A DNA stretch of 64,000 bases, from the NCBI GenBank assembly GCA_034422875.1, contig DAOUJI010000107.1:6260-70259 (forward strand), in the 5' to 3' direction. Numbering within the stretch: the stretch's first letter is position 1; each line of letters begins with the position of its first letter. Positions 5,001 through 39,740 of the stretch are shown here, piece by piece. Below the pieces are notes generated by a model. It had not been told where the DNA came from. It saw only the letters and a list, made by a program, of their open reading frames with translations, and did not search any database. This DNA is from Dehalococcoidia bacterium (GTDB lineage Bacteria > Chloroflexota > Dehalococcoidia > Lucifugimonadales > JAGWBF01). The translations under genes and the position numbers were made by a program.

Positions 5001-5004
5001 TCTC

Positions 5005-5025: not shown

Positions 5026-5038
5026 CAGAGGGTATAAT
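5010..5038 (+). promoter_or_regulatory. putative sigma70-type promoter of selD
   Basis: GTGTCA - 17 nt - TATAAT (5033..5038), about 38 nt upstream of the selD ATG. Confidence 0.4.
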
Positions 5039-5075
5039 AACGGTCTAGACCCCTAGGCAGCCCTATAGGAGAGTT

Positions 5076-6122: not shown

Positions 6123-6166
6123 GCCCATTATCGGTTTCAAAGCCCGCTCGTTTGTTCAGAAAGCGT

Positions 6167-6586
6167 TTACGTAGGTAGCAATATCGACTTAAGACTGCCG
6201 GTACGCGCCACCGAATAGATGAAGGGACGCTCCGTATCCCGGGCTGCATCCAAGATTCGGTCATACGCTCTAGCAAAGCAACGCATGATTTCCCACTTGG
6301 GGGCCTCCGCACCCCAAAGATAAAAGCACCCTACCCCGTATTGCCTCAAAGCATATAGTTCTTGCTCTTTTTTATGGATAGACGAGTCCTGGGTGATGAC
6401 AAACCATCCTAGATTCCCGACGATACTGAGCCAAAGGTCATCGCCGCCTTCTTGATGTCTGTCGCTTAGAGGGAAATGGTCGAGATATGTCTCGATGCCA
6501 ATGGTTGCGCCGTCAACCCGTGGAGTGAGTAGTTTAAGAGCTTCAGGGATAGTCTTAGGTAGGTTCTTGTCCCAAAAGAATATCAT
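6167..6586 (-). CDS. PIN-like (DUF5615/Mut7-C-like) putative toxin
   Basis: MIFFWDKNLPKTIPEALK...GWFVITQD pattern is typical of DUF5615-type PIN-like proteins. There is an ATGA overlap with the upstream DUF433 gene. The region is low GC. Confidence 0.55.
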   Translation of the reverse strand: MIFFWDKNLPKTIPEALKLLTPRVDGATIGIETYLDHFPLSDRHQEGGDDLWLSIVGNLGWFVITQDSSIHKKEQELYALRQYGVGCFYLWGAEAPKWEIMRCFARAYDRILDAARDTERPFIYSVARTGSLKSILLPT

Positions 6587-9467: not shown

Positions 9468-10578
9468 CTAATATGCGTCGCCTTTGCCCATCGTGGAGCG
9501 CAGGTAGGCTTGTATGAAGCCGTCGATGTCTCCGTCCAGCGCCGCGTCTGCGTTGGAGGTCTGATGGTCCGTCCGGTGGTCCTTGACCAGCTTGTAGGGG
9601 TGGAGGACGTAGCTCCGTATCTGGCTTCCCCACTCGGTGGCCAGACGGTCACCCCTTAGCAGAGCGAGTTCCTGCGCACGCTCCTCCATCCTCTTCTCCA
9701 GAAGCCGGGCCATCAGTATTCGCATGGCGAACTCCCGGTTCTGGTATTGGGAGCGTTCGTTCTGGCACGCCACAACGATCCCCGACGGTAGATGGGTCAG
9801 CCGAACGGCGGAGGCCACCTTCTGGACGTTCTGTCCTCCTGGACCGCTGGACCTGAAGAAGTCCATCTTCAGGTCATCCGGCTTGATCTCAACTTCTTCC
9901 TCATCGTCGGCCACAGGCATCGTTTCGACCTGCGCGAATGACGTGTGGCGCAGGTGGTTGGCGTCGAAGGGTGAGAGACGCACCAGCCTGTGAACACCCT
10001 TTTCCGCTTTGAGATAACCGTAGGCGTATTTGCCTCCCACCTCAAGGGTTGCGCTCTTTATGCCGGCCTCCTCACCGTAGGAGGTGTCCAGCACCTGGGC
10101 CGCCCGCCCCTGGTTTTCAGCCCAACGGAGATACATGCGCAGCAACATCTCGGCCCAGTCCTGGGACTCGGTGCCGCCCGCACCTGAGTAGACGGTGACG
10201 ATGGCTGGACGGTCATCGTAGGGGCCGGACAGGGTCAGCAGGAACTCCTGGCGTTCCAACTCTTCCGAAAGCTCGCGACACTCGCTCCGAAGCTGTTCTT
10301 CCAGAGTGTCGTCAGTTTCCGCGAGGGCCAACTCCACCAGTTCCAGCAGCGAACCGGCGCTCTGCTCCAGTCCCCGCCAGGTGTCGACTGTGTCCTTCAA
10401 CCGGGCGAGACGCTGCATCACTCTTTGGGCTTCCTGGGGATTGTCCCAAAACGAGGCTGCTCCGGCTTCTTTCTCAAGCCGGTCTACCTCGGTCTCTTTG
10501 GCCGGGACGTCAAAGACGGTCCAAGGCTCCGGCGATCCGCTGGGTCATCTCGATAAGCTCAGCCCTGAGGTCTTGCAT
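9468..10578 (-). CDS. prfB: peptide chain release factor 2, requires programmed +1 frameshift
   Basis: Frame 0 reads MQDLRAELIEMTQRIAGALDRL then TGA. After CTT TGA C, the +1 frame continues DVPAKETEVDRLEKEAGAASFWDNPQEAQRVMQRL... into ORF 9468..10421, which contains SPF and GGQ motifs. AAGGAG RBS precedes the ATG at 10578. Confidence 0.9.
10509..10515 (-). promoter_or_regulatory. prfB +1 frameshift site CTT TGA C
   Basis: The reverse strand reads ...GAC CGT CTT TGA CGT CCC. This is the canonical RF2 autoregulatory slippery site. Confidence 0.85.
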
Positions 10579-10588
10579 CCGCAGCTCC

Positions 10589-11281
10589 TTATGTCCGCGC
10601 GGCCAGTTTAGGCGGCCTGCCCGCAGCGGCGTTATGTGCATTTCTCGTAGTTTCCGGCAGCCGAAATTTGTTGCAGACGGACAGCGTCCACTCAACCGCA
10701 CAGTCCAACTCTATCATATGTCCTACGGACACGAACACGGGACTGACCCCCGTCCTGGTCCTAACTGCCATTCCAATAACTTCACCCTTGTGCATCAGCG
10801 GCGTCCGTGAACCCCGTTCCTGCCCCAATTCGGCATACTCTCCCACCAGTATGGACTTGGCGCAGCCGATGGTTGGGGTCTGGGCTACCAGACCGATATG
10901 GCAGGCGATGCCGAACCGCCTGGGATGCGCAGCTCCGTGGCCGTCCACAATAATCAGGTCGGGTTCGACGCTCAACCCTTCCAAAGCCATCGCCAGCGCC
11001 GGGGTCTCCCTGAATGAGAGAAGTCCAGGCACATAGGGCATCGACGGGACCATCCTGGCAATTGATGAATCCACCGGCTCCAATTCTGGGAACGCCAACG
11101 CCACTGCGGCGGCGGTGACAACTCCGTCGGAGTCAGGAGCGGACATATCGAGACCAACCACGTAGCGCACGTCAGCCAACCGTGGACATCCGGACGCGAA
11201 AACCTGCGGGGCCAGCAGCTTTTGCATCTCCCGGGCCTCGCCAGGGGTGACATCCCAGGAATGGAGGGTTCGCAGTTCCAT
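10589..11281 (-). CDS. nfi: endonuclease V
   Basis: VVGLDMS...YVPGLLSFRE.P...LIIVDGHG..HPRRFG.ACH.G pattern of Nfi. Confidence 0.85.
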   Translation of the reverse strand: MELRTLHSWDVTPGEAREMQKLLAPQVFASGCPRLADVRYVVGLDMSAPDSDGVVTAAAVALAFPELEPVDSSIARMVPSMPYVPGLLSFRETPALAMALEGLSVEPDLIIVDGHGAAHPRRFGIACHIGLVAQTPTIGCAKSILVGEYAELGQERGSRTPLMHKGEVIGMAVRTRTGVSPVFVSVGHMIELDCAVEWTLSVCNKFRLPETTRNAHNAAAGRPPKLAART

Positions 11282-11905: not shown

Positions 11906-13600
11906 TCAAACGGTTTCCGAGGGCCGAAAGTCCACGACCATCAGCTCCATAATGGGAGTGTTTCCGACGCGTCCAGCGCCCACGGTGTACACCACGTCCA
12001 CCCTGGACGTACCGGCTTCCCACTTATCGGCCTGCCTAAAGGCCAGGGCGTCCCACACCACCCTTCCCTCTTTCAGTCTTAGTTTCATGTGCTGACCCTG
12101 GGCGCCCATCGTGCGGACATGAGCGGCCTCCAGATTTCGGGTCAGGAACGTAGGGGCCGGGTTGTCCACTCCGAAGGGCCCCAGGTCCTGCACCCACTGG
12201 AAGGCGGCGCCGGGGATGGTGGACACCGGAGCCTCTGCGTCTATGTGCAGCGGAGCGGCTCCTTCAATGTGCTCCGACGCCTCGTCGGAGATCAAGCCCA
12301 GCCTGGATTCCAGCTGGGCCATGTTGAAAGAGGGCATCACAAACCCGGCTGCTTGCCCATGGCCTCCGTACCGTGTGAAGAGGTCTGCGCAGGGCTTTAA
12401 CGCTTCGTTGAGGACGTGAAATTCTGGAACGCTTCTGGCGCTGGCCCTCACTACGTCCCCGATCTGTGAAACGACTATGGCAGGCCGGGAGAATTCGTCT
12501 ACCAGCCTGCTCGCCACCAGCCCGGCTATGCCAGGCGCAACCCACTCCCCGCCGGCCAGAATGACCGACGGCAGGTCCCGCCTGCTCAGGGTCTGCTCTT
12601 TTGCCCTGGCAAAGGAGTCCAGGGTCATCTGCTGGCGTTCCCTGTTCAGCTTTTCCAGGTGGGAAGCGAGGCTGGCGGCTTCATCCTTGGAAGCAGTCGT
12701 CAAGAGTTTGTAGGCCAGCGACGCATGGTCCAATCTTCCTGCGGCGTTTAGCCTTGGAGATATCATGAAGGCAATGCCATCTACGTCAATTCCGGTGGGA
12801 TCGATGCCGGCCTGTTTGTACAGCGCCTGGAGGCCCGGTCTGCGTGTGGTCTGGAGGCGCTTGAGCCCCTCTTTGACGAAACGCCTGTTCTCGCCCACCA
12901 GAGGCACCAGGTCCGCAACCGTGCTCAACGCCACCAGTTCGAGCAGGTCGCGGCTCCAGTCGCGGCCCAGGTCGTTGTACAGGGCTTCCACCAGTTTGAA
13001 GGCCAGGCCCGCCCCCGAAAGCTCGGTGAAAGGATATTCCGAGTCCACCAGCTTGGGATCGATTATGGCGACAGCAGGCGGAATCCTGTCAGGAGGCAGG
13101 TGGTGGTCCGTGACAATCACGTCCATTCCCAGTTCGCCCGCCAGAACTATCTCATCCAGGGATGTGATGCCGCAGTCAACCGTGATGATAAGTGACACGC
13201 CCGCCTGTTTGAGGGCCATGACGGCTTCAGCGTTCAGACCGTGTCCTTCGTCCTCTCGGTGGGGGATGTAAGGCGCGACCGTCGCCCCCAGCTCCTCCAA
13301 TCCTTGGGCGGCTATGGCTGTTCCGGTGACTCCATCCACATCGAAATCGCCGAAAACGCCGATAGTCTCACCGGATGTGAGGGCTGTGCGGAGCCTGGCA
13401 ACGGCGGGACCCATGCCGGGGAGAAGCGCCGGGTCATGGAAGGCCGGGTTCATGTAGTCCGCGAGGCTCTGCTCGGAGTCGATGCCTTTGTTCGCCAGCA
13501 GTTGGGTCACTAGAGGGGGCAAGTGAGATAGGCCGTTAAGAGCCTTGGATACGGGAGGCCGGACCCTCCACACCCTGCGTCCACCCCCGTTGACGTTCAT
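11906..13600 (-). CDS. recJ: single-stranded-DNA-specific exonuclease RecJ
   Basis: DHH motifs (GDFDVDGVTG, VTDHH) and a DHHA1 region. Length is 564 aa. Confidence 0.9.
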   Translation of the reverse strand: MNVNGGGRRVWRVRPPVSKALNGLSHLPPLVTQLLANKGIDSEQSLADYMNPAFHDPALLPGMGPAVARLRTALTSGETIGVFGDFDVDGVTGTAIAAQGLEELGATVAPYIPHREDEGHGLNAEAVMALKQAGVSLIITVDCGITSLDEIVLAGELGMDVIVTDHHLPPDRIPPAVAIIDPKLVDSEYPFTELSGAGLAFKLVEALYNDLGRDWSRDLLELVALSTVADLVPLVGENRRFVKEGLKRLQTTRRPGLQALYKQAGIDPTGIDVDGIAFMISPRLNAAGRLDHASLAYKLLTTASKDEAASLASHLEKLNRERQQMTLDSFARAKEQTLSRRDLPSVILAGGEWVAPGIAGLVASRLVDEFSRPAIVVSQIGDVVRASARSVPEFHVLNEALKPCADLFTRYGGHGQAAGFVMPSFNMAQLESRLGLISDEASEHIEGAAPLHIDAEAPVSTIPGAAFQWVQDLGPFGVDNPAPTFLTRNLEAAHVRTMGAQGQHMKLRLKEGRVVWDALAFRQADKWEAGTSRVDVVYTVGAGRVGNTPIMELMVVDFRPSETV

Positions 13601-13615
13601 CCGGCCGAGGATGCT

Positions 13616-14866
13616 CTAGCTCCGGTCCACCGCTCCGAAGATGAGGACCGAATTATGGCCCCCAAACCCGAAAGAGTTGCTCATCGCATAACGTATCTGG
13701 GCTTCACGGGACTTGTTCGCCGTGTAGTCCAGGTCGCAGTCAGGGTCTTGGTCGTCCAGGTTGATGGTGGGCGGCAGGACTCCGTCTCGGATTGCCATAA
13801 TCGTGGCTGACGCTTCCAGGGCGCCTCCGGCGCCAAGCAAATGGCCAGTCATGGACTTGGTGGAGCTTACGGGAGTCCGGTGGGCGTCCTCACCCAACGC
13901 CAGCTTGATGGCCAGCGTCTCCTGCCTGTCATTCAGAGGCGTAGATGTGCCGTGGGCGTTTATGTACCCGATTTCTTCGGGCGCCACTCCCGCCCTCTCG
14001 ATAGCCGTCTTCATAGCCCTGGCGGCGCTTACGCCGTCGGGATGGGGCTCAGTCAGGTGGAAGGCGTCGGAGGTGGCGGCGTAGCTGACCAGTTCCGCCA
14101 GCGGCTCCGCCCCCCGCTTTTCCATGTTCTCTTCGCTCTCGAGGACCAGAATGGCTGCGCCCTCTCCCATTACGAAACCGTCCCGAGCGGTGTCAAAGGG
14201 GCGACTGGCCTTCTGAGGCTCCTCGTTGCGCTTGGACAGGGCATGGAGCGAATTGAATCCCGCGACGGCAATGGGGCATATCGGAGCTTCGGCTCCTCCC
14301 GCCAGGACCACGTCGGAGTCTCCCCGGCGTATCATCTCCCACGCCTGCCCAATCCCGTCGGCGCCGCTGGAGCACGAGGACACGGCACAGAAGTTGTGGC
14401 CCATCGCCCCGGACAGCATGGAAACCTGTGCCGACCCCATGTCGGCCAGCATCATGGGCACCAGGAACGGAGACACCCTGCGCGGGCCTTTTTCCTTCAG
14501 CGTCTCCACCTGTTGGGACAGGGTGATGACGCCTCCAATGCCGCTTCCCACGATGGAGGAGAGGCGATAGGGGTCCATCTCGTCGGGCTTGAGCCGAGCC
14601 TGGGCCATAGCCTGGGCCGAGGCGACCGCCGCGAACTGGGCGAACCGGTCCATCCGTCTGGCTTCTTTCTTCTCCAGATAGTCGGTCGGCTCGAACCCCT
14701 TTACCTCGGCGGCGAAACGGGTTTCGAATCCCTCCGGGTCGAATGCGGTGATGGAGTCGACGCCGGACACGCCGCCCACCAGATTGTCCCAAGAAGTGGA
14801 AAGGTCCAGACCGAGGGGGCTAATGACTCCGATGCCGGTTACGAATACTCTCGTCGACAACCACAC
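13616..14866 (-). CDS. fabF: beta-ketoacyl-ACP synthase II
   Basis: RVFVTGIGVISPLG N-terminus, active-site context SSCSSG, INAHGTSTP and GFGGHNS motifs. Confidence 0.9.
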   Translation of the reverse strand: MWLSTRVFVTGIGVISPLGLDLSTSWDNLVGGVSGVDSITAFDPEGFETRFAAEVKGFEPTDYLEKKEARRMDRFAQFAAVASAQAMAQARLKPDEMDPYRLSSIVGSGIGGVITLSQQVETLKEKGPRRVSPFLVPMMLADMGSAQVSMLSGAMGHNFCAVSSCSSGADGIGQAWEMIRRGDSDVVLAGGAEAPICPIAVAGFNSLHALSKRNEEPQKASRPFDTARDGFVMGEGAAILVLESEENMEKRGAEPLAELVSYAATSDAFHLTEPHPDGVSAARAMKTAIERAGVAPEEIGYINAHGTSTPLNDRQETLAIKLALGEDAHRTPVSSTKSMTGHLLGAGGALEASATIMAIRDGVLPPTINLDDQDPDCDLDYTANKSREAQIRYAMSNSFGFGGHNSVLIFGAVDRS

Positions 14867-14906
14867 ACCTTCCCGTTGCGTCTCGCCGTCGTAACGACAC
14901 CTGGGT

Positions 14907-16703
14907 TTATGCAGTCTCCCGTTTGAATTCGGACAACCTCATCATGGCCTCGTTCACTTCGTTGATACGGACCGAGATAGTGTCGCTTATTTCGCGTCCC
15001 GTCTGGGCGATTTGGATTCTGTATCTGCCCAGGGCCTCACTGGCCTCGTTGATGCGTTGGGAAATCACGTCGGGGAGTTCCCGTCCGGTTTCCGACAGCT
15101 GGATGCGGTACTTTGCGAGAGTTTCGCTTACTTCGTTCATCCGGGCGGATATGGCCTCGGGCAGCTCTTTGGAGGAATCAGACAGCGTACGCAGAGCTTC
15201 GCTGAACTCCCCAATGCGGAGTGATACAGTCCCGCTCAACTCTCGTCCGGCCGACTGCCTCTTGGACTTGGGGGACCTGATAAGGCGGAATATCCGCTCG
15301 TACAGCTTGTCTATTGGGTTCAGCTTTGCGTGGTACCTATTGAAGAGGTCTCTGGACTCTTCCAGGGACCATCGTTCGTCCTGGTGGACGAACTGACGTC
15401 CGGTGTAGAGTTCGTAGGGCCTCATGCCGTACTCGGCGAGCACGTTGCCGCGCTCATCGGTGGGCAGCGGGTTCCCCTTGGCGTCCAAGGGCACCAGCGA
15501 GTCCCAGTTGGACGTGGCGGGCAGCGGGGTCAGTAGATTCGCCGTCTGGTACTTGCTCACCTTCGTAACCCAGTCAGCCATGTCCATGATTCCCTGTTCC
15601 GTGTCGTAGGGAAGCCCGATGATGGTCATCGCCACCAGGGTGAAGCCCATCTTGTTGAGCTGCACCAGGTCTTTGTGGACCTGACCGGGCTCCTGGCGCT
15701 TTCGCACCAGCTTCAAATTCTCGGCGTTGTCGGACTCGACTCCCACGTAGAGCATTCGAATGCCGGCTTCATACATGGCGTCAGCCAGTTCGGGGTCCTG
15801 GCCGATCTCCGCCCGTGTCTGGCAAATCATATACATGTCGTCGGTGTGGCCCTTCCAGTTCTCCAGCCGGGCCAGACGCTCGTTTCTGTACTTCACTGCC
15901 CTGAGGGGAGGAGGATGGAGGTCGTCGGAGATGAAGACGCTGAACCGTCCGTCCCTGGCAGTGTGGATAAGGCCGTCGGAGGCCAACTGCCTGAGTTGGC
16001 GTAGCCTCTTGATTTCAGTTTCCCGGTTGATCAGGCGATACCCCAGGAACTGTTGTATCACCTGGCAGTAGGTGCACTTTTCGGTGCAACCCCGGACGGT
16101 TTCCAGCACTCCGCCTGCCATGGGCATCTGAGGCGTCAGGTCCCTTATGGCCCTGAAGTCGGGCAGAGGAATGAAGTCCGGCTCTATGACCCCCTTCCGG
16201 GGAGTCTGAATCAATTGCCCCTCTCTGACAAAGGATATCCCTGGTATCTTCCTCAGCCTTGTAACGGGCACTGGGCCTTTGTGCTCCAGGAGCATGTCGC
16301 AAAGGGGGCCTATGATGTCTTCCCCTTCGCGATTGACGATGATGTCAAAGTGTCCTTCCCGGATGGCTTCCTCCGGGAGAGGGCTCATCTGGGGTCCGCC
16401 ACCTATGGTCACCAACTCTGGATGGAATTGCTTGGCAAGCCTGCCGATTTCATAGCCGCGTGGGGCCTCGTTAATCAGGGCGGTGATCATGAGGACGTCA
16501 ACGCCCTCCAGGTCCTTGTCAGGGTCCATAGGACCGCTGCGGTCCTCGAACCATATCTCTGTGTCGTAGAGGAAAGGACCTTTCCACTGCTTTAACGCGG
16601 CGGATAGAAAGAGCATGCCCTGCCGCGGGATGGCAACGAACTCGAAGTTGCCTCCCTGGGAGCTGGGTTGGACAAGAACCACTCTTTTGAACTTAGACTT
16701 CAT
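14907..16703 (-). CDS. B12-binding-domain radical SAM protein with C-terminal tandem-repeat extension
   Basis: N-terminal Rossmann-like VVLVQPS...DVLMITA segment, radical SAM cluster motif CTEKCTYC, then about 113 aa of repeats at the C-terminus. Lies 40 nt upstream of fabF on the same strand. Confidence 0.8.
   Translation of the reverse strand: MKSKFKRVVLVQPSSQGGNFEFVAIPRQGMLFLSAALKQWKGPFLYDTEIWFEDRSGPMDPDKDLEGVDVLMITALINEAPRGYEIGRLAKQFHPELVTIGGGPQMSPLPEEAIREGHFDIIVNREGEDIIGPLCDMLLEHKGPVPVTRLRKIPGISFVREGQLIQTPRKGVIEPDFIPLPDFRAIRDLTPQMPMAGGVLETVRGCTEKCTYCQVIQQFLGYRLINRETEIKRLRQLRQLASDGLIHTARDGRFSVFISDDLHPPPLRAVKYRNERLARLENWKGHTDDMYMICQTRAEIGQDPELADAMYEAGIRMLYVGVESDNAENLKLVRKRQEPGQVHKDLVQLNKMGFTLVAMTIIGLPYDTEQGIMDMADWVTKVSKYQTANLLTPLPATSNWDSLVPLDAKGNPLPTDERGNVLAEYGMRPYELYTGRQFVHQDERWSLEESRDLFNRYHAKLNPIDKLYERIFRLIRSPKSKRQSAGRELSGTVSLRIGEFSEALRTLSDSSKELPEAISARMNEVSETLAKYRIQLSETGRELPDVISQRINEASEALGRYRIQIAQTGREISDTISVRINEVNEAMMRLSEFKRETA
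14910..15248 (-). repeat. four tandem 26-30 aa (about 87 nt) coding repeats at the 3' end of the radical SAM gene
   Basis: GRELSGTVSLRIGEFSEALRTLSDSS / KELPEAISARMNEVSETLAKYRIQLSET / GRELPDVISQRINEASEALGRYRIQIAQT / GREISDTISVRINEVNEAMMRLSEFKRETA. Confidence 0.8.
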
Positions 16704-16989: not shown

Positions 16990-17204
16990 ATGATGGTTGA
17001 ATCGGAAATAACCTTCCAGGTACGGGAATCCCCTGAGGGGGTTATAAAGCCCGCGCCCTGGGGCACAGCATCTTTACTGAAGGCGATGACTGGGAACATC
17101 TGAAGTCTATGTTGCGAGAGGCTGTGCTATGCCACTTCGAAGAAGAGGACACGCCTCGACTAATACACATCCATCTTGTCAGGGATGAGGTCATTGCGGT
17201 GTGA
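16990..17204 (+). pseudogene. HicB-like antitoxin family gene disrupted by a 1-nt frameshift in a G run
   Basis: GGAG RBS and ATG at 16990 give MMVESEITFQVRESPEG. After the G5 run (17037..17041) the frame one base back reads GYKARALGHSIFTEGDDWEHLKSMLREAVLCHFEEEDTPRLIHIHLVRDEVIAV*. Joined, this is about 71 aa and resembles small proteins paired with HicA toxins. Confidence 0.45.
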
Positions 17205-17318: not shown

Positions 17319-17343
17319 GGGCGACCAGCCGGTCGCCCCTACA
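17319..17343 (+). repeat. GC-rich palindromic (REP-like) element
   Basis: GGGCGACC AGCC GGTCGCCCCTAC. Related to 37155..37182 and 41230..41255. Confidence 0.6.
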
Positions 17344-17449: not shown

Positions 17450-17821
17450 TCATTCCAACTCGACGGCGTGGGTGACGTGCTCGACCTGGGGAGATGAACC
17501 TCGGGTCAGGGTCACGGCTATCAGATCGATCCTCCAACCGGGAGGCGCCTCTTCCAGCCCTTGAATGTAGGTTTCCGCCGTGGCCTGCAGCCGTTCCTTC
17601 TTACGTTGGGTGACCGACTCTTTAGGCCCGCCGAACTTGTCATCGCTTTGGCGAGTCCGCACCTCTACGAACACCAGGTGATCTCCGTCCTGGGCGACGA
17701 TGTCCACTTCGCCCCACTTGGTCCGGTAGTTGGTTCCCAGGATTTTCCAACCCAGCCCGAGCAAGTGTCTGCGGGCGATGTTCTCACCCCTGTTCCCCAG
17801 TCTAATCCTGGGCGTGGACAC
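17450..17821 (-). CDS. yraN: YraN-family endonuclease (UPF0102)
   Basis: LGNRGENIARRHL...GW.ILGTNYRTKWGEVDIVA....LVFVEVRTR pattern. GTG start. Overlaps the rnhB 3' end by 20 nt. Confidence 0.8.
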   Translation of the reverse strand: MSTPRIRLGNRGENIARRHLLGLGWKILGTNYRTKWGEVDIVAQDGDHLVFVEVRTRQSDDKFGGPKESVTQRKKERLQATAETYIQGLEEAPPGWRIDLIAVTLTRGSSPQVEHVTHAVELE

Positions 17822-18479
17822 CCGACTCCTCTCCGTCGGCTATCAGTCTAACAGGGGCGAATGTGCGCCGGTGGATGAGGCATGGGCCCAGTTCCGAAAG
17901 CCTGCGCCGGTGTTCGACCGTTCCATAGCCCTTGTGGGACGCAAATCCGTATCCAGGGTACATGGCGTCGGCCTCCGACATCATCCCGTCTCTGGTCACC
18001 TTGGCCAGAATGGACGCCGCAGCGATGGAGTAGCTTATGCTGTCGCCGTGGGGAAGGGAATAGTAGGGAATGCCGGGGGCCTTAAGCTGGACATGGTCGA
18101 TAAGGAGGTGGGATGGAGAAACATCCAGGCTTTCCAGCGCTCTCTGCATAGCCTTCTTAGTCGCCGGAACTATTCCCCAGTCGTCTATCTCCTGCGCGGT
18201 GGCAATGCCCACACCCATTGATAGGGCATATTCGCGGATGTTCTCCAGTGCCTTTAGTCTTTGGCGGTGGCTCAGGGCCTTTGAGTCGTCCACCATGCCC
18301 AGCCAGGAATGGTCATGATTGCCGTTGTGGAGAGACGAGGAAAACAGACTGGCCGGGAATATGACGGCCCCGGCGACCACGGGACCGGCGAGCGGACCGC
18401 GGCCTGCTTCATCAATCCCCGCCACCAGGTCGAAACCCTGGGCATAGTACCTGCGTTCCAGGTCGAACGTAGGCGCCAC
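17802..18479 (-). CDS. rnhB: ribonuclease HII
   Basis: GIDEAGRGPLAGPVV and DDSK motifs. Confidence 0.9.
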   Translation of the reverse strand: MAPTFDLERRYYAQGFDLVAGIDEAGRGPLAGPVVAGAVIFPASLFSSSLHNGNHDHSWLGMVDDSKALSHRQRLKALENIREYALSMGVGIATAQEIDDWGIVPATKKAMQRALESLDVSPSHLLIDHVQLKAPGIPYYSLPHGDSISYSIAAASILAKVTRDGMMSEADAMYPGYGFASHKGYGTVEHRRRLSELGPCLIHRRTFAPVRLIADGEESGVHAQD

Positions 18480-18530
18480 CGCCTCCCCTCCCCACGCTCT
18501 GTCTGTCCTAACGTTGCAGTCCCAACGGAA

Positions 18531-19631
18531 CTATCTGGCGGCAGTCACGGCAGGGATTTGGGCGGACTCGATGCGCCCCCCGCCGAGAACCTCGTCTCCT
18601 TGATATATCACCATAGCCTGCCCTGGAGTGACGGCCCGTTGCGGACACTCGAACTCTAACCTGGCCTTTTCGCCGTCCGGGTGGAGAATCGCCGCGGCTT
18701 CAGGCGACTTGTAACGTATCTTCACCATCACCTGAGAGCCATCTTCCGGCTGGCGCCCGGATATGTAATTTACATCCGAGGCGACAAGAGTCATGCTGTA
18801 GAGTTGCTCCTCCGGGCCAACGACCACATCCCCTGACTCGGCGTCGATGGCAATCACGTACTGGGGATTCTTTGTGGATATCCCCAGCCCGCGCCTCTGG
18901 CCCACGGTGAAGAACTCCATTCCCTCATGCCGCCCCAGAACAGATCCTCCACTGTCCACAATCAGGCCGGGCCGTGGAGTCACCCGTTCCTTCAGGAACT
19001 GCCTGTAGTCCCCTGACGGTATGAAGCATATGTCCTGGCTGTCAGGTTTCTCGGCGTTGGGGAAGCCTGCCTTGAGAGCCGCGTCTCTAATTTCCTCTTT
19101 GGTGTAGCCGCCCACGGGCATCAGGGTGTGGCCCAACTCCTTCTGTCCCATGCCGTACAGTACGTAAGACTGGTCCTTGGACCGGTCCATACCCCGCAGC
19201 AGGCGGAAGCCATCCGGCCCAGGCTCGATGCGGGCGTAATGACCGGTGGCCACGTAGTACGCCCCAAGAATCCGGGCCCGGTCGTATAGGAAGCTAAACT
19301 TGATCCGGTCGTTGCAGGCGATGCACGGGTGAGGGGTCATGCCCCGCTGGTACTCACGGCAGAAGTAGTCAATGACGAAAGCCTGAAACTCCCGCTGGAG
19401 ATTGAAGACATAGTGGGGCGCTTCCAGGCGTGCGCATACGCGGCGGGCGTCCTCCACATCATCGATGGTGCAGCAACCCTTGTAGTAGTCGGGAAGGCTG
19501 TCCAAGTCCACGTCGTAGAGCTTCATCGTGACGCCCACGATGTCATAGCCCTGCTCCTTAAGAAGCAGGGCTGCAACTGATGAGTCTACGCCGCCGCTCA
19601 TCGCGACGGCCACTTTGCCATTAGTTGGCAT
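18531..19631 (-). CDS. mnmA: tRNA 2-thiouridine(34) synthase
   Basis: KVAVAMSGGVDSSVAA PP-loop and conserved Cys contexts. I prefer the ATG at 19631 (MPTNGK) over the TTG at 19643. Confidence 0.9.
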   Translation of the reverse strand: MPTNGKVAVAMSGGVDSSVAALLLKEQGYDIVGVTMKLYDVDLDSLPDYYKGCCTIDDVEDARRVCARLEAPHYVFNLQREFQAFVIDYFCREYQRGMTPHPCIACNDRIKFSFLYDRARILGAYYVATGHYARIEPGPDGFRLLRGMDRSKDQSYVLYGMGQKELGHTLMPVGGYTKEEIRDAALKAGFPNAEKPDSQDICFIPSGDYRQFLKERVTPRPGLIVDSGGSVLGRHEGMEFFTVGQRRGLGISTKNPQYVIAIDAESGDVVVGPEEQLYSMTLVASDVNYISGRQPEDGSQVMVKIRYKSPEAAAILHPDGEKARLEFECPQRAVTPGQAMVIYQGDEVLGGGRIESAQIPAVTAAR

Positions 19632-19649
19632 CAGGGTATCCAAATTACT

Positions 19650-22880: not shown

Positions 22881-23864
22881 CTAAGATTCGAAACCAGGCA
22901 GCAATGAACCATTGGTTTTGCTTTTAGTATTAGGCAAAGCAGGCTTTGGGTTTCTTTTCTGAATGGTGAACATGGTACTCGCAGCACTTGCTTTTGCTTC
23001 CGCTAGCTTAGCAGTTGCTTTGTTAACGTATTCCAAGTTGATCTCATAGCCAATATACCTACGGTTCGCGCGTATTGCAGCTTCGGCGGTCGTTCCTGAA
23101 CCGATGAAAGGGTCCAACACTATATCACCTACGAAAGAATACAAATTGATGAGACGGAGGGGCAGTTCAACCGGGAAGGGAGCAGGATGATTGGCCTTCT
23201 TTGCTCTTGCAGCAGGAAATCTCCAGATACTCTTGGTATACTCTAAGAAATCATCGCGGCCTATGCTGTTTTGGCGAATGGGGTGGCGTTTGAATGTTCC
23301 TTTGCAAAACACGAGGATGTATTCATGGACATCGCGCAGGACAGGATTGCTGGATGACTTCCAACTCCCCCAAGCAGACGACGAACCTGCACTTGCCCCC
23401 TTGTCCCATATAATCTCTCCGCGCATGTAGAATCCGCAATCCTGGGCAATCTCTATGATGTATGCGTGTAGCGGAATGTAGGGCGTTCGGCCAACATTGG
23501 CGATATTGATGCACGCGCGGCCCCCTTCCACAAGAGTCCGATAAGTTTCTTGTAAGACTTGCGAAAGCAGGTCCCGATATTCTGAGAGAGAAAGGTCGGC
23601 ATCGTATTCTTTTCCAACATTGTATGGCGGTGAGGTAATCATCAAATGTATAGAGTCATTTGGCAAGCGTGACATATCCCTGCTGTCTGCGCCATATATG
23701 ACATCCAACTCATTTGGAACATTTTCACTGTACTTTCCGTTCTCACTGTTTCTGGGCCTCAAGTCTTCATATAGTCTTTTTCCATAAAACTTACTCGAGT
23801 CGTGACCCGTACGACTCACTGTTCCGAATGACGACGTTTCCGTTCTCTTCACAGTGTGTCCCAT
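22881..23864 (-). CDS. site-specific DNA methyltransferase, beta-class (N4-cytosine or N6-adenine)
   Basis: Motif IV ITSPPY precedes motif I LDPFIGSGTT, which is the beta-class order. Low GC. The start is uncertain: ATG at 23864 (16-nt overlap with the upstream gene) or ATG at 23924. Confidence 0.85.
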   Translation of the reverse strand: MGHTVKRTETSSFGTVSRTGHDSSKFYGKRLYEDLRPRNSENGKYSENVPNELDVIYGADSRDMSRLPNDSIHLMITSPPYNVGKEYDADLSLSEYRDLLSQVLQETYRTLVEGGRACINIANVGRTPYIPLHAYIIEIAQDCGFYMRGEIIWDKGASAGSSSAWGSWKSSSNPVLRDVHEYILVFCKGTFKRHPIRQNSIGRDDFLEYTKSIWRFPAARAKKANHPAPFPVELPLRLINLYSFVGDIVLDPFIGSGTTAEAAIRANRRYIGYEINLEYVNKATAKLAEAKASAASTMFTIQKRNPKPALPNTKSKTNGSLLPGFES

Positions 23865-24502
23865 AACTGTATCCAACGATGGTACAAGGCCCGCTCGACC
23901 AATAGTGACGGATCCCGGTTCCATTCAATAGGAAGAGACTGAGTGTTCTGATGGGTTTGTAGTAGATGCATCGCGTCTCTTGAGATTTCAACGCCGCGAG
24001 GATTGGTTCCCCTTGGTGGCACTTTCGTATAACCAGAAATGGTCAATGCGCGCATTACCTCTTCTTGAACCTGTTGGGGAAACAGAAACATCCTACCAGT
24101 TTTGCCCCACAAGACATTGACATAGAGCAAGTGGCTGGAAGGAGCGTACGTGCCGAGGAAATCGTCAATCTTGTCCCAATCCACCGTCCACACCAGTTTT
24201 ACACCACCCAGTCCTCCTGTTGATTTAGTCTTGATGGACACAGGGTGGTTGTTTACTAGAACATCTAGTGCTGGTGAAGTACTTGGAGGAAACTCAACGC
24301 TGTCAACTCCGTACACATACATGAACAGAGCAATTAGCACCCGCTCCCGTGCAGTGCCGACCTCCATGCCCAGCCGTTTGCCTCTCCTATTCTCCAACTC
24401 TACCATATTAAACAAGGTAGGTAGAACACGTTGGATTCTCTCGCTATATGGAGAAGAGAATAACTCGACCCCAAATGGTGATTCGGCTACGGAGGTGTTC
24501 AT
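23849..24502 (-). CDS. candidate type II restriction endonuclease (cognate of the methyltransferase)
   Basis: Immediately upstream of and overlapping the MTase gene. Possible PD-(D/E)XK-like element ALDVLV...SIKTK. No family recognised with certainty. Confidence 0.45.
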   Translation of the reverse strand: MNTSVAESPFGVELFSSPYSERIQRVLPTLFNMVELENRRGKRLGMEVGTARERVLIALFMYVYGVDSVEFPPSTSPALDVLVNNHPVSIKTKSTGGLGGVKLVWTVDWDKIDDFLGTYAPSSHLLYVNVLWGKTGRMFLFPQQVQEEVMRALTISGYTKVPPRGTNPRGVEISRDAMHLLQTHQNTQSLPIEWNRDPSLLVERALYHRWIQLWDTL

Positions 24503-34199: not shown

Positions 34200-35300
34200 T
34201 TGAAAGTAGTCGAAGGTATAGCATTCCAGGACTCGTCCCTGGTCCCGATTTGGGAGAAGACCTTAGCGGGCCAGCGCCTTTCCATGGACGACGGAGTCCG
34301 TTTGTTCGAAACCGCCGACCTTCCGGCGGTGGGGCGAATGGCTGATCACGTCAAGAGCCAAAAAGAGGGCGACAAGGTCTACTTCGTCCTGAACCGCCAC
34401 CTGAACCCCACCAACATTTGCGTCCTTAGCTGTAAGTTTTGCGACTTCGCCAAGAAGAAGGGCGACCCCGACGCTTACGAGATGTCCATGGAGGAAATCC
34501 TGGACCACGTGGATGAGGACACCCGAGAGGTCCACATGGTGGGAGGCCACCATCCCGACTGGCCTTTCGAGAAGTACGTGGAGATTGTCTCCTCCATCCA
34601 CCAGCAGCACCCTCACGTCCAGATAAAGGCCTTCACGGCAGCTGAAATCGAGTATTTCAGGAGACGCTGGAAGGTGGACCCTGAGGAGTCGCTGGCCCGG
34701 CTCAAAGAGGCAGGACTAAGCTCCATGCCCGGCGGCGGCGCCGAAGTGTTCTCGTCCCGGGTGGGAAAGGTTCTCTACCCCGGCAAGAACCACCCCGACC
34801 GGTGGGTAGAGATTCACCGGGTGGCCCACAACATGGGCATCCGCTCCAATGCCACACTTCTCTACGGACACATCGAGACCTATGAAGAGCGAGTAGACCA
34901 CTTCATGCGTCTCCGGGAGCTCCAGGACGACACAGGCGGCTTCCTGGCCTTCATTCCCCTGGAGTACCAAGTGGGAGACACCAACCTGGTGTCCCGGCAG
35001 GCCTCAGCGATAGAAGACCTGAAGACCATCGCAGCAGCCAGGCTGATGCTGGACAACTTCCCCCACATCAAGTCCTACTGGGTGATGATCACTGAACAGA
35101 CCGCCTCGGTGGGGCTCCACTTCGGCGCCAGCGACATGGACGGGACCATCGGCAAGGAGCGCATAGCCCATGCTGCCAAGGCCGAGAGTCCCGGCGGGCT
35201 AGCCAGAGACAGGGTGGTCCAACTCATACGGGAAGCCGGAAAGACTCCCGTCGAGCGGGACGCACTCTACAACGTGGTGCAGGTGTATGGACGTAATTAG
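34200..35300 (+). CDS. futalosine-pathway radical SAM enzyme (MqnC/MqnE family; which of the two is not resolved)
   Basis: NRHLNPTNICVLSCKFCDF cluster motif, GGHHPD, GGFLAFIPLEY. TTG start with AAGGAA upstream. Confidence 0.7.
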   Translation: MKVVEGIAFQDSSLVPIWEKTLAGQRLSMDDGVRLFETADLPAVGRMADHVKSQKEGDKVYFVLNRHLNPTNICVLSCKFCDFAKKKGDPDAYEMSMEEILDHVDEDTREVHMVGGHHPDWPFEKYVEIVSSIHQQHPHVQIKAFTAAEIEYFRRRWKVDPEESLARLKEAGLSSMPGGGAEVFSSRVGKVLYPGKNHPDRWVEIHRVAHNMGIRSNATLLYGHIETYEERVDHFMRLRELQDDTGGFLAFIPLEYQVGDTNLVSRQASAIEDLKTIAAARLMLDNFPHIKSYWVMITEQTASVGLHFGASDMDGTIGKERIAHAAKAESPGGLARDRVVQLIREAGKTPVERDALYNVVQVYGRN

Positions 35301-36036
35301 AGTCGGAAGAATCCCATACCTCAACTCGGAGCCCTTCTACTACCAGATGATCCGGAACGACATCGAGCTCCACAGCTTCGTTCCCAGCGAGTTGACCAAG
35401 GCCGCAGAACGGGGCGACATCGACGCAGGCCCCATGCCCTTGGTGGACTACTTTCGTCTTGAAGACCAGTTCAACAGGCTGGGCCAGTTCTGCATAGCCA
35501 CCCTGGACAAGTCCCGCAGCATACTGTTCTACTCTAAAACGCCCATAGAGGAACTGAACGGCGCCACCATCGGCGTCATCCCCGACACGTCTACGTCGAT
35601 CAAGCTGCTCCAGTCCCTCTTCAAGGAACGTTTCAACGTTAAGCCCGGCAAATATGTGGGGCTGAAGGACGAGAACGACGCCTTTCTGCTGATAGGAGAT
35701 GAGGCCCTAAAACGCCGCTACGGCGTCCCCGGCTACCCCTACCGATACGACCTGGGCGAAGAGTGGTTCAAGTGGCACAGGATGCCCTTCGTGTTCGCTG
35801 TGTGGGTCGTCTCCAACGAGATGCCGGAGAAGCGGGCCAACTATCTGGAGAACGTGCTCTACACCTGCGTGGACGAGGGACTGGAGCACATGTACGTTAT
35901 TGCCCAGACAAGGGAAGACGTGCGAATGAGCAACAAGGAAATAGTCGACTACTACCAGGGCATCCGCTACTGGGCTGGAGTGGGAGAGCTGAAGGCTATC
36001 CGGCTATTCCGGGAGCTCGTGGACAGCCTGGACTAG
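35287..36036 (+). CDS. mqnA: chorismate dehydratase (MqnA-like, PF02621 family)
   Basis: IRVGRIPYLNSEPFYY N-terminus. Sandwiched between the two Mqn radical SAM genes and overlapping the upstream one. Confidence 0.7.
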   Translation: MDVIRVGRIPYLNSEPFYYQMIRNDIELHSFVPSELTKAAERGDIDAGPMPLVDYFRLEDQFNRLGQFCIATLDKSRSILFYSKTPIEELNGATIGVIPDTSTSIKLLQSLFKERFNVKPGKYVGLKDENDAFLLIGDEALKRRYGVPGYPYRYDLGEEWFKWHRMPFVFAVWVVSNEMPEKRANYLENVLYTCVDEGLEHMYVIAQTREDVRMSNKEIVDYYQGIRYWAGVGELKAIRLFRELVDSLD

Positions 36037-36038
36037 CA

Positions 36039-37130
36039 ATGACCTCGGACATTCTGGACACTGTCAGGTCCAAAGTCGAGGCTGCGGACCGCATCACCAA
36101 CGACGAAGCCCTCTTCCTGATGCGTGAGGCCAACATCCTGGACCTGGCCCCCCTGGCCCAGACCGTAAGGCAACGCCACAACCCCCAGGACGACGTCACC
36201 TTCGTCGTAGACACCAACCTCAACTACACGAACGTCTGCGACGCCTATTGCACCTTCTGCGCCTTCTACCGCACCGAGAGAGACGACGACGCCTACACCC
36301 ACTCTGTGGACGAGGTCATGGAGATGCTGGGGCAGGCCCGGGACAAGGGTGTCACCACCGTCCTGATGCAGGGCGGGCTAAACCCCAAGCTGCCCTTCCA
36401 GTACTACCTGGACCTGGTCAGCGAGTCCCGCCGCAGGTACCCGGAAATCCATCCCCATTTCTTCTCAGCCCCTGAAATCATGAAGATGTCCGAAGTGTCG
36501 AAACTGTCCGTGCATGACGTCCTGGCCCAGCTTAAGGACGCAGGGCTCCAGACCATCCCCGGCGGCGGCTCCGAGATTCTGTCCAACCGGGTGAAGCACA
36601 AAATCAGCCGCCTCTTCCCCAAGGGCAAGGTGGACGACTGGACGTTGGTCCACAGCGAGGCCCACAAGCTGGGCTACAAGACCACGGCCACCATGATGTA
36701 CGGCCACCTGGAAGACGACGAGGACGTAGTCGAGCACCTCGACCACATACGACAGGTGCAGGAGGAGAACGGCGGCTTCACGGCCTTTATTCCGTGGAGC
36801 TACAAGAAGGACAACACTGCTCTGGGCAAGCGGGTGAAACAGGAAGCGGGCCCCAACTCTTATCTCCGCATCATGGCAGTTTCCCGCATCTACCTGGACA
36901 ACTTCCCCCACATCCAGGCGTCATGGTTCTCCGAGGGAAAGAAGACCGGCCAGGTCGCTCTCCATTTCGGAGGAGACGACTTCGGCGGCACCCTGTTCGA
37001 CGAGAACGTGATGCAGGAAGCGGGCTTCTACAACCGCACGACAGTGGACGAGGTCTGCAACATCATCCGCGACGCCGGCTTCACCCCCGTCCAGCGCAAC
37101 ACCCTCTACGACATAGTCAAGCGCTGGTAG
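36039..37130 (+). CDS. futalosine-pathway radical SAM enzyme (MqnC/MqnE family, second paralog)
   Basis: Starts MTSDILDTVRSKVEAADRITNDEALFLM. NLNYTNVCDAYCTFCAFYR, GGFTAFIPWSY, HIQASWFSEGK. The ATG is 2 nt after the mqnA stop. Confidence 0.7.
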   Translation: MTSDILDTVRSKVEAADRITNDEALFLMREANILDLAPLAQTVRQRHNPQDDVTFVVDTNLNYTNVCDAYCTFCAFYRTERDDDAYTHSVDEVMEMLGQARDKGVTTVLMQGGLNPKLPFQYYLDLVSESRRRYPEIHPHFFSAPEIMKMSEVSKLSVHDVLAQLKDAGLQTIPGGGSEILSNRVKHKISRLFPKGKVDDWTLVHSEAHKLGYKTTATMMYGHLEDDEDVVEHLDHIRQVQEENGGFTAFIPWSYKKDNTALGKRVKQEAGPNSYLRIMAVSRIYLDNFPHIQASWFSEGKKTGQVALHFGGDDFGGTLFDENVMQEAGFYNRTTVDEVCNIIRDAGFTPVQRNTLYDIVKRW

Positions 37131-37154: not shown

Positions 37155-37182
37155 GTAGGGGCGACCGGCCGGTCGCCCCTAC
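37155..37182 (+). repeat. perfect 28-nt GC-rich palindrome (REP-like)
   Basis: GTAGGGGCGACC GGCC GGTCGCCCCTAC. Confidence 0.7.
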
Positions 37183-38716: not shown

Positions 38717-39574
38717 CTATGCGCCGAGGATGTCCCCCAGTATGTCCAAAGAGGGAACCTCCGAAATGATCCCGCGTTCTTTGGCCTTGGAGTACATGGT
38801 CTCAAGGGCCTTTGCACCCTCCTGTCCCATGTTGACCGTGTCCTCATTAACGTACATCTTGACGAATCGGCGGCAGGTCTCCCTGTCGATGCCCCGGCCA
38901 AAAGGCAGGGAATAGTCAACCGCGTCGTCTTCGTGGTCCAGTGCGTACTTTATGGAGGAGCCAAAAGCCTCGGTGACCCGCAGGCTGGCGTCCTCTCCCA
39001 GCCTCCTGTGCACCACGTCGATGCCCAGAGGAATAGGCAGCCCCGTGTCTCTGCCCCATTCGACGCCCAGGTCCATCAGGTTTGTGAATCCCTGGGACTG
39101 CCAGGTTATCTGCCCTTCGTGGATGATGAGGCCGGCATCCACCTCGCCCGATTTGACGGCGTCTCCTACTGCGTCGAAGTTAAGGAACACGGGCTCAAAA
39201 GGCCGTTCGAGATATATTCTGAGAAGCAGATAGGCGGTGGTGTAGGGGCCAGGGATGCCGATTCTCTTGCCCTCCAGGTCGGCAAGGCTACCAGGGCCGC
39301 CAGAGCCTTTCCCCAAGAGAATAGGCCCGTAGTTCCGTCCGATGGATGAGCCGCACACCATGATGCGGTACTGGTCGGCGACCATGGGGTAGGAGGCTGC
39401 GGAGATGGCTGTCACCTCAAGCTCACCCTGGAGCGCCCGCTTGTTGAGGGACTCAATGTCCTCAAGGACCTGCTCGACCCGGAAGCCGTCGATGGTCACC
39501 TTGCCCGCTGCAAAGGCGTAGAACATGAAAGCGTCGTCGGCGTCGGGGCTGTGTCCTATGCGCAAAGTCTCCAT
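38717..39574 (-). CDS. mqnD: 1,4-dihydroxy-6-naphthoate synthase (MqnD-like)
   Basis: METLRIGHSPDADDAFMFYAFAAGKV...EDIESLNKRA resembles the MqnD N-terminus. The longer ORF to 39790 overlaps the divergent gene and is rejected. Confidence 0.7.
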   Translation of the reverse strand: METLRIGHSPDADDAFMFYAFAAGKVTIDGFRVEQVLEDIESLNKRALQGELEVTAISAASYPMVADQYRIMVCGSSIGRNYGPILLGKGSGGPGSLADLEGKRIGIPGPYTTAYLLLRIYLERPFEPVFLNFDAVGDAVKSGEVDAGLIIHEGQITWQSQGFTNLMDLGVEWGRDTGLPIPLGIDVVHRRLGEDASLRVTEAFGSSIKYALDHEDDAVDYSLPFGRGIDRETCRRFVKMYVNEDTVNMGQEGAKALETMYSKAKERGIISEVPSLDILGDILGA

Positions 39575-39740
39575 GAATCGTCTCGAACGGGGCCGCTCAA
39601 GTATATGGCATGGGGCTATGGGAGTAAAGGAGCGCGGCTGACAGCGACTCTGACGCCGTGCTAAGATTCCTAATCCGCCGAGCAGGGCCGCAGCCAGCGG
39701 GACCTCACGGCAGACCTCTCCCTTCGGGGGGGTTACGTTA

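Follow-up and report, generated by a model that had tools for sequence, protein, structure and literature searches.

A cobalamin-type radical SAM family with an amphipathic repeat tail and an invariant fabF partner in Dehalococcoidia: a possible acyl-chain modifying enzyme at the lipid interface

A 64,000-nucleotide stretch of DNA from a Dehalococcoidia bacterium (contig DAOUJI010000107.1 of assembly GCA_034422875.1, positions 6,260 to 70,259; here called the window) carries a gene for a class B radical S-adenosylmethionine (SAM) protein, that is, one with a cobalamin-type domain, which ends in an array of amphipathic repeats and lies directly upstream of fabF. Such a tail is unprecedented on a class B radical SAM enzyme, and the fabF partnership of the tail-bearing proteins is invariant. 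The leading reading of the gene product, offered tentatively, is that of an interfacial (amphitropic) enzyme that modifies acyl chains. A sequence-only reading of this stretch had suggested a surface-docked, lipid-modifying role; its structural side and the conservation of fabF hold up well, while membrane docking and lipid modification themselves remain circumstantial.

The reading frame opens with ATG, and its translation is identical to the one quoted earlier. Its parts are as follows.

14907..16703, reverse strand: whole gene, 598-residue class B (cobalamin-domain) radical SAM protein, from the open reading frame (ORF), Pfam, homologues and fold matches
16194..16703, reverse strand: N-terminal Rossmann-like domain of cobalamin-binding type, about residues 1-170, from Pfam B12-binding, the AF2 model and invariant columns
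15504..16118, reverse strand: radical SAM partial TIM-barrel core, about residues 196-400, from Pfam and the point where generic class B alignments end
16065..16088, reverse strand: CxxxCxxC [4Fe-4S]/SAM cluster motif CTEKCTYC (C206, C210 and C213), from the sequence
15264..15503, reverse strand: family-specific C-terminal extension of the core, about residues 401-480, with the invariant motifs YQTANLLTPLPATSNW and RPYxLYTGRQ
15171..15248, reverse strand: tail repeat 1, residues 486-511
15087..15170, reverse strand: tail repeat 2, residues 512-539
15000..15086, reverse strand: tail repeat 3, residues 540-568
14910..14999, reverse strand: tail repeat 4, residues 569-598

The catalytic part of this layout, a 598-residue frame with a cobalamin-binding-like domain and a CTEKCTYC site, had already been proposed, and it is borne out by the translation, by Pfam and by the invariance of C206, C210 and C213 in both family alignments (24 and 16 homologues). 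Pfam Radical_SAM (PF04055) covers residues 201-379 at 48.8 bits against a cutoff of 29.5. The N-terminal domain holds the motifs GGGPxMSPLPEEA and REGEDIIG, conserved in the family alignments, and matches Pfam B12-binding (PF02310) over residues 66-130. At 26.2 bits this match falls just short of the 32.1-bit threshold, which the orthologues P0082 (33.4 bits) and P0113 (33.7 bits) pass. An AlphaFold model built from 24 homologues gives a confident Rossmann-like domain and barrel, with a predicted local distance difference test (pLDDT) score of 80-95 for the beta/alpha core and for the beta-alpha pattern of the N-terminal domain alike. The extension at residues 401-480 is kept throughout the family, tail-less and archaeal proteins included, and has no match in generic class B enzymes.

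The 16 best fold matches in the PDB are all chains of six class B enzymes, MgmA, AprD4, TsrM, CysS, OxsB and TokK, at 14-18% identity and E-values of 1e-11 to 3e-14, with AprD4 second-best. None of the curated NCBIfam equivalog cutoffs is reached by the 598-residue protein. The best sub-threshold family is MgmA, a protein methylase (58.5 bits against a cutoff of 360); HpnJ (54.5 against 577.6), ApyD (52.4 against 750), BchE (46 against 481), HpnR (41.6 against 650) and the ladderane family TIGR04072 (16.5 against 360) fall further below theirs, and the cutoffs of PhpK and rSAM_ocin_1 are likewise not reached. Class B fold matches together with the lack of any equivalog-grade score indicate a class B architecture outside the characterised families; no characterised non-lipid family contains the core in the profile and structure comparisons. 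A filter-free homologue search of 1.84 billion representatives shows the same isolation as a series of score steps: orthologues score about 760 bits (763), distant members 548-224 bits at 55-37% identity, and generic class B enzymes about 110 bits, aligned to residues 6-403 only. Judged by these sequence comparisons, the protein represents a distinct, isolated and uncharacterised family. Clustering at 90% identity divides it into more than 1,200 groups. More than 120 full-length homologues stand at 64-96% identity, and the tailed members with a named organism are all from Dehalococcoidia, SAR202 or "Chloroflexota" metagenome-assembled genomes.

The second pillar of the reading is the neighbouring gene. 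The downstream block is read in the same direction as the radical SAM gene.

14867..14906, reverse strand: 40-nucleotide spacer from the radical SAM stop codon to the fabF start (46 nucleotides with the gene caller's start)
13616..14866, reverse strand: fabF, canonical beta-ketoacyl-ACP synthase II (TIGR03150, 592 bits against a cutoff of 493.75)
11906..13600, reverse strand: recJ, third gene of the block (Pfam DHH/DHHA1/RecJ_OB)

The TIGR03150 score confirms the fabF gene claimed at a distance of 40 nucleotides on the same strand, and its translation shows the motifs SSCSSG, NAHGTSTP, KSMTGHLLG and NSFGFGGHN, including the Cys-His-His catalytic motifs. Neither a terminator-like nor a promoter-like site was found on the coding strand of the 40-nucleotide spacer, and the two genes are probably co-transcribed, as far as gene layout can tell. 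Spacer length in relatives runs from 34 to 666 nucleotides. In 42 species-representative genomes, 41 loci extend far enough to show the next gene, and in each of them it is fabF, read from the same strand. When 80 metagenomic loci and individual contigs are added, fabF lies within 1.5 kb in 110 of 110 tail-bearing members; with locus L107 (below) and two very long-tail members that have the same layout, the overall tally is 113 of 113 tail-bearing loci for which downstream DNA exists. Tail and fabF linkage, whose loss in orthologues would have counted against the sequence-only reading, are thus both retained in every tail-bearing relative examined.

Two apparent exceptions to this pairing were considered and dismissed. 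In locus L107 (885..2666) a frameshift parts a 471-residue core from a 115-residue tail ORF, and both the tail ORF and fabF are there. Tail-only proteins of 67-171 residues (P0121-P0131) also occur in the protein database; they and the L107 split may stem from frameshifts introduced by sequencing or assembly, or from genes that are now and then split in nature. The tail-less protein of locus L131, at 69% core identity, is probably an assembly chimera, given a fall in guanine-plus-cytosine (GC) content from about 55% to 45% and unrelated genes beyond that point.

The wider block is looser. Genes upstream of the radical SAM gene vary between lineages, and recJ follows fabF in 68 of 88 informative loci (77%), the linkage being broken in 23%. 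Loss of recJ linkage in that share of loci means that the block has been repeatedly broken, and the junction between the radical SAM gene and fabF never. recJ itself is probably functionally unrelated and serves as a gauge of how much weight synteny can bear. A second beta-ketoacyl-ACP synthase (KAS) gene is present in one subclade, at thirteen loci (L021, L023, L025-L027, L029-L032, L035, L037, L039 and L045) about 6 kb upstream of the radical SAM gene on the opposite strand, or about 7.5 kb upstream in L026. It is about 50% identical to the linked fabF, and the L045 copy, the only one scanned, scores 584 bits, above the FabF equivalog cutoff. The idea that the linked enzyme is a divergent, specialised KAS paralogue was ruled out, as it is a canonical FabF and the second copy of L045 is FabF-grade too. 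Small ORFs without a family match interrupt the block in some lineages: one of 88 residues between the radical SAM gene and fabF in L051 (11661..11927), and one of 168 residues between fabF and recJ in L045 (13202..13708).

The third pillar is the tail. Self-comparison at successive shifts, scored with BLOSUM62, yields a lone peak at 29 residues (145 versus -55 +/- 18 for shuffled tails, z=10.9), so that the four repeats of 26-30 residues claimed at 14910..15248 stand, as residues 486-598 with a period of 29. Tandem Repeats Finder detected no DNA-level tandem repeat, which argues that the protein repeats are old and diverged. Across the family, total length ranges from 482 to 720 residues, and the tails fall into four classes by the number of residues beyond the core.

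Absent: 19-33 residues beyond the core
Short: 50-83 residues
Medium: 125-136 residues (window protein, 127)
Long: 172-227 residues

Every member of the tailed clade retains its tail, although the length spans 50-227 residues. Among close orthologues the ratio of nonsynonymous to synonymous substitution rates (dN/dS) is 0.04-0.14 for the tail and 0.04-0.09 for the core; the amino acid sequence of the tail changes about twice as fast as that of the core. Values this low point to strong purifying selection, and by this measure the tail is a real, selected, functional module. The same ratios and the clade-wide retention rule out a fused substrate of the kind found in ribosomally synthesised and post-translationally modified peptides (RiPPs), as well as a junk extension. 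A module common to other protein classes is likewise rejected at the sensitivity of a search with the tail alone, which gave only the 67-171-residue fragments of the same family.

In AlphaFold models of the full-length protein and of the tail alone, the tail forms four long helices (about residues 478-507, 514-539, 543-565 and 571-593) separated by linkers that contain Gly or Pro. Confidence is low, with a pLDDT below 50 for the tail within the full-length model and about 60 (predicted template modelling score, pTM, 0.36) when it is modelled by itself, and the packing of the helices is not reliable. The hydrophobicity spectrum of the window tail has one sharp peak at 99.5 degrees (3.62 residues per turn), above 1999 of 2000 shuffles; at this pitch a 29-residue repeat completes 8 turns. 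The eight tails of at least 125 residues with an alpha-helical peak have it at 97.5-100 degrees, against 102.9 degrees for a heptad. The six longest tails and most short ones peak at other harmonics, the short tail P0285 at 103 degrees. In long tails the maxima stand at 131 and 164 degrees, which match exactly the 4/11 and 5/11 harmonics of a period of 11 residues, and the sequence reads as near-perfect 11-mers such as ISLRMEELNET LSSKIEDIRAS LSSTREGLRES. A heptad coiled coil (3.5 residues per turn, 102.9 degrees) is ruled out by the tail periodicity, and the hydrophobic stripe runs almost straight, which fits a flat surface better than a supercoiled bundle.

Charge distribution provides a further view of the same helices. 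With the hydrophobic face set from hydrophobic residues alone and the charge layout averaged across 20 tails, acidic residues lie on average 148 degrees from that face, with 297 of 347 in the 120-180 degree sector; in the window protein the fraction is 17 of 19. Ser and Thr average 98 degrees, at the interface, and Arg and Lys 111 degrees, spread toward the interface. As projected from sequence, this layout is the class-A pattern of exchangeable apolipoproteins. The earlier suggestion of amphipathic, apolipoprotein-type helices is thereby supported on three counts, namely predicted helices, 3.6-3.7 residues per turn and class-A charges. Profile matches remain faint: for Pfam Apolipoprotein (PF01442), whose cutoff is 90 bits, the window protein scores 19.1 and P0082 24.8; ApoLp-III (PF07464) gives 15.7-22 bits against 36.3, and a YtxH match in the window protein is also sub-threshold. 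In long-tail relatives the precomputed Apolipoprotein match is unmarked as weak or faint, that is, its E-value is at most 1e-5. The resemblance is best taken as a functional analogy, and homology is not claimed.

How might such a module have come to sit on a radical SAM enzyme? The distant members P0136, P0280 and P0144 (52-37% identity) stop directly after the core and lie in archaeal surroundings: locus L050 (9464..11476) lies among genes for L7Ae, S28e, L24e, L10/P0, a stalk protein (Ribosomal_60s) and archaeal elongation factor 2 (aEF-2), the last with archaeal EF-2 as its best PDB matches. Similarly, the archaeal homologue in L049 (938..3137) adjoins L7Ae, and that in L047 (2496..4719) adjoins fibrillarin and cysteinyl-tRNA synthetase (CysRS). 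fabF is absent from all three loci. The adjacency to L7Ae occurs in two independent arrangements, one divergent and one same-strand downstream; L7Ae and fibrillarin are components of the box C/D small ribonucleoprotein, and these neighbours may represent inherited archaeal synteny or hint at an RNA-related ancestral role. A rough neighbour-joining tree of the cores unites the tailed proteins in a single clade, with tail-less bacterial-type proteins as its sisters and the archaeal forms at the base. Tail and position beside fabF thus probably arose together, once, going by this tree, and both were then kept while tail length drifted.

These relatives feed the main rival explanation, in which the enzyme, as its archaeal relatives would, modifies no lipid but an RNA, a protein or a small-molecule cofactor. 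The place beside fabF would then be inherited and without functional meaning, and the tail would serve oligomerisation, partner binding or solubility. On the strength of the archaeal homologues and the co-conservation of recJ we consider this possible, if on balance unlikely. Archaeal and other tail-less homologues at about 50% identity lack fabF, with L7Ae (twice), fibrillarin and CysRS among their neighbours; recJ stays with fabF in 77% of informative loci; the top sub-threshold family, MgmA, is a protein methylase; linkage and tail probably stem from a single event; and the window gene is itself surrounded by genes of nucleic-acid housekeeping (mnmA, rnhB, yraN, recJ, nfi and prfB). Against it, the junction with fabF is never broken across 113 loci, unlike the fabF-recJ junction and all upstream junctions, and the tail has apolipoprotein-type, not coiled-coil, periodicity with a class-A charge layout. 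Moreover, a plasticity in length from 50 to 227 residues speaks against a precise protein-protein interface, and the neighbours at the archaeal loci are divergent or convergent rather than operonic.

If the substrate is instead an acyl chain, class B chemistry suggests what might be done to it. Most characterised class B enzymes are methylases, and class B enzymes can methylate unactivated sp3 carbons. Cultured SAR202, Dehalococcoides and Tepidiforma, in turn, are rich in 10-methyl or branched fatty acids. In the cultured SAR202 strain JH545, summed feature 9 (10-methyl C16:0 and/or C17:1 w9c) makes up 54.4% of the fatty acids, and the other major ones are 10-methyl C18:0 (20.2%) and C16:0 (10.1%); Dehalococcoides mccartyi 195 has 25.8% 10-methyl C16:0 and Tepidiforma 90.4% br-C19:0 (PMC10444878 Suppl. 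Table 4). For none of these three does the table give any unsaturated fatty acid (PMC10444878 Suppl. Table 4). The sole established route to 10-methyl chains is that of BfaB/BfaA, by methylenation and then reduction of a delta-9 double bond (PMC5660069, PMC7791843). JH545 is predicted to salvage cobalamin. Two 2026 reviews, of lipid-modifying and of B12-dependent radical SAM enzymes, describe no methylase of ordinary fatty acyl chains (PMC13459092, PMC12931638), and our literature search found neither a proposal of a radical SAM route to 10-methyl fatty acids nor a report of this family in SAR202 or Dehalococcoides. The two halves of the idea do have precedents, with HpnP/HpnR and Gmm as class B radical SAM lipid methylases and the ladderane clusters as radical SAM genes among fab genes (PMC13459092).

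From these elements a more specific proposal can be drawn, on balance doubtful: the family would be a cobalamin-dependent methylase of an unactivated mid-chain carbon, providing an oxygen- and desaturation-independent route to 10-methyl C16:0 and C18:0 in Dehalococcoidia (SAR202, Dehalococcoides and Tepidiforma), and working at the membrane interface through a length-tunable, apolipoprotein-like tail gained when an archaeal-type ancestor was recruited beside fabF. The tail would lie flat on the cytoplasmic face of the membrane, reversibly bound, and hold the catalytic core at the lipid interface. A 5'-deoxyadenosyl radical would take hydrogen from the mid-chain carbon, to which methylcobalamin would donate a methyl group, the most likely products being 10-methyl C16:0 and 10-methyl C18:0 as found in cultured SAR202 and Dehalococcoides. 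Co-expression with fabF would tie chain supply and chain length to chain branching. Since the methyl group stands at C10 in both C16 and C18 chains, its position appears to be counted from the carboxyl or ester end, which would fit a substrate already complete and esterified, reached at one set depth beneath the head groups; fixed-depth methylation is what an interfacially docked enzyme would be expected to give.

A number of observations weigh against this picture of a lipid-surface enzyme. The B12-domain score of the window protein is under threshold, and AprD4 is an example in which a cobalamin-type domain is reportedly present without cobalamin binding. Per-helix hydrophobic moments in the tail are moderate (0.21-0.37), as they are in long, weak binders of lipid surfaces. 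No acpP was found within 10 kb in any locus, nor, apart from the second KAS of one subclade, another fab gene, and recJ, which has no plausible lipid role, is co-conserved at 77%. The tail-less bacterial-type proteins P0312 and P0317, the former in a cluster containing one sequence labelled Dehalococcoidia, have no fabF where flanking DNA exists. Archaeal (49-55% identity) and bacterial tail-less homologues without fabF imply that the ancestral substrate was probably not a bacterial fatty acid. Because tail gain and fabF linkage map to one node, the 113 of 113 may amount to a single event; the count still documents long-term retention of both. Finally, summed feature 9 is ambiguous by definition.

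A lipid role could also take other forms. One is that carrier-protein- or pantetheine-tethered acyl intermediates are modified during elongation and passed to FabF, with the tail docking FabF, acyl carrier protein (ACP) or the fatty acid synthase assembly. The tight pairing with a probably co-transcribed fabF would fit, as would the crystallisation of the close structural relatives CysS and TokK with pantetheinylated substrates and the stepwise schemes of radical SAM enzyme and FabF proposed for ladderanes (PMC13459092). We regard it as improbable, given that acpP was not found within 10 kb at any locus, that a constant C10 branch in C16 and C18 chains favours finished chains, and that variable repeat number and class-A amphipathicity fit a surface over a defined protein partner. 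The odds lengthen further for a lipid substrate that undergoes non-methylating radical chemistry, whether cyclisation, carbon-carbon coupling or a step toward the furan fatty acids reported in Dehalococcoides. AprD4 illustrates a class B fold without methylation, and ring formation and tail-to-tail coupling of lipids are carried out by the class B and other radical SAM enzymes GrsA/B, Tes, Mss and Gms (PMC13459092). Such lipids are unreported for SAR202, the abundant unusual fatty acids there are 10-methyl branched, and the predominance of methylases among characterised class B enzymes also disfavours this option. That the tail, like a phasin or a perilipin, directs the enzyme to storage granules of neutral lipid or polyester in place of the cytoplasmic membrane is very improbable: lipid-droplet proteins typically have long arrays of 11-mer-type helices of weak amphipathicity and the ApoLp-III and Apolipoprotein matches, weak as they are, exist, but storage-lipid genes were not seen in the neighbourhoods examined and the passages of the SAR202 culture paper considered here do not describe granules (PMC10444878).

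Elsewhere, the window holds features of interest in their own right. It is part of a 104-kb metagenomic scaffold, and its neighbourhood is typical of SAR202, with luciferase-like monooxygenase paralogues and CoA-transferases. No riboswitch was found in the gap upstream of the radical SAM gene, nor an Rfam match anywhere in the window. This 750-nucleotide gap contains only a palindromic repeat and a frameshifted HicB-like antitoxin remnant, identified by eye at 16990..17204 on the forward strand (MMVESEITFQVRESPEG... / ...MLREAVLCHFEEEDTPRLI). The repeat is a GC-rich, 21-nucleotide intergenic palindrome, GGGGCGACCGGCTGGTCGCCC, found at 17319..17339 and 37158..37179 (4 strand-matches against 0.02 expected); it looks like a repeated element of the repetitive extragenic palindromic (REP) type, and spurious ORFs cross it. 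Beyond the gap, mnmA-rnhB-yraN (17450..19643) lies directly upstream of the radical SAM gene on the same strand, whereas in L001-L004 (about 2000-6300), from relatives 94-96% identical, it is read from the opposite strand, at a distance of 4-8 kb upstream. The difference is a local inversion or rearrangement with a junction in the 16.7-17.45 kb gap.

Three further loci deserve mention. prfB (9468..10590) has a canonical programmed +1 frameshift site, CTT TGA C, at 10509..10515 on the reverse strand, where the upstream frame ends in ...ALDRL* and the +1 frame goes on as DVPAKETEVDRLEKEAGAASFWDNPQEAQRVMQ. At 22881..24502 on the reverse strand, a ThaI-like restriction endonuclease and an N6/N4 DNA methyltransferase have a GC content of 0.535-0.539 against about 0.60; lower GC and absence at the matching place in L043 suggest that this restriction-modification island was probably recently acquired. 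Two CofH/MqnC-type radical SAM genes and one MqnA-type (VitK2_biosynth) gene at 34200..37130 (forward strand) and 38717..39790 (reverse strand) point to menaquinone synthesis via the futalosine pathway.

The stakes of the methylation proposal are considerable. SAR202 and other Dehalococcoidia rank with the most abundant bacteria that live in the dark ocean and also occur widely in the subsurface, and 10-methyl branched fatty acids are widely used lipid biomarkers whose known pathway needs unsaturated precursors unreported in these organisms. If correct, the proposal would explain 10-methyl lipid synthesis in strict anaerobes and SAR202 and would tie the membrane composition of Dehalococcoidia to vitamin B12 supply. 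Methylation of a plain acyl chain would be a new radical SAM reaction and this the first such enzyme, as well as a source of oxidation-stable, mid-chain branched fatty acids. Whatever the reaction, a variable-length apolipoprotein-like array on a radical SAM enzyme would be a new architecture for radical chemistry at a lipid surface.

Known systems resemble the window protein in parts. Similar in layout and chemistry are HpnP/HpnR and the glycerol monoalkyl glycerol tetraether (GMGT) methylase Gmm, which share the order of cobalamin domain and radical SAM core and add methyl groups to unactivated carbons of lipids embedded in the membrane (PMC13459092). They act on hopanoids or isoprenoid tetraethers, versus the fatty acyl chains proposed here; the similarity to HpnR is generic (41.6 bits against 650), and none of the three has a described repeat tail or linkage to fabF. 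GrsA/GrsB, the ring synthases of glycerol dialkyl glycerol tetraethers (GDGTs), are class B radical SAM enzymes that act on lipid chains, like the role proposed here, and have a C-terminal alpha-helix proposed for substrate binding (PMC13459092), a single helix compared with an array of 50-227 residues. They are, moreover, archaeal and form rings.

For gene context, a parallel is offered by the ladderane clusters of anammox bacteria, where a B12-type radical SAM gene (TIGR04072) lies amid fab genes, a neighbourhood that prompted the proposal of a lipid role (PMC13459092). Those clusters have FabF homologues and a dedicated ACP, whereas here fabF alone is linked, without ACP, FabZ or desaturase-like genes; the TIGR04072 match of the window protein is negligible (16.5 against 360), and organisms and lipids differ from those of anammox. 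BfaB/BfaA, a UfaA1-type methyltransferase and its flavin adenine dinucleotide (FAD)-dependent reductase, yield the same class of product on phospholipid-bound chains (PMC5660069, PMC7791843). Enzymes and chemistry are wholly different: the delta-9 double bond undergoes a polar attack and is then reduced, and the route requires unsaturated precursors, which the Dehalococcoidia profiles do not report. The radical SAM/B12 fold of the window protein is also unlike their Cfa-like class I SAM methyltransferase and FAD oxidoreductase, and no CMAS-type gene is found among the scanned ORFs of the 64-kb window.

The tail has its counterparts elsewhere. ApoA-I/ApoE, apoLp-III, perilipins, alpha-synuclein and the M domain of CTP:phosphocholine cytidylyltransferase (CCT) likewise consist of tandem amphipathic helices with 11/3 periodicity, and the apolipoprotein-type proteins and the tail have in common a polar face that is acidic at its centre, basic residues closer to the interface and punctuation by Gly or Pro. 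In the length class of the window tail one repeat takes 29 residues (8 turns), where theirs takes 11 or 22, and the module is fused to a radical SAM enzyme. As an amphitropic lipid enzyme, CCT provides a functional analogy. Another is viperin (RSAD2), a radical SAM enzyme tethered to membranes and lipid droplets via an amphipathic helix; viperin differs in having a single N-terminal helix, in not belonging to class B, in its nucleotide substrate and in being eukaryotic.

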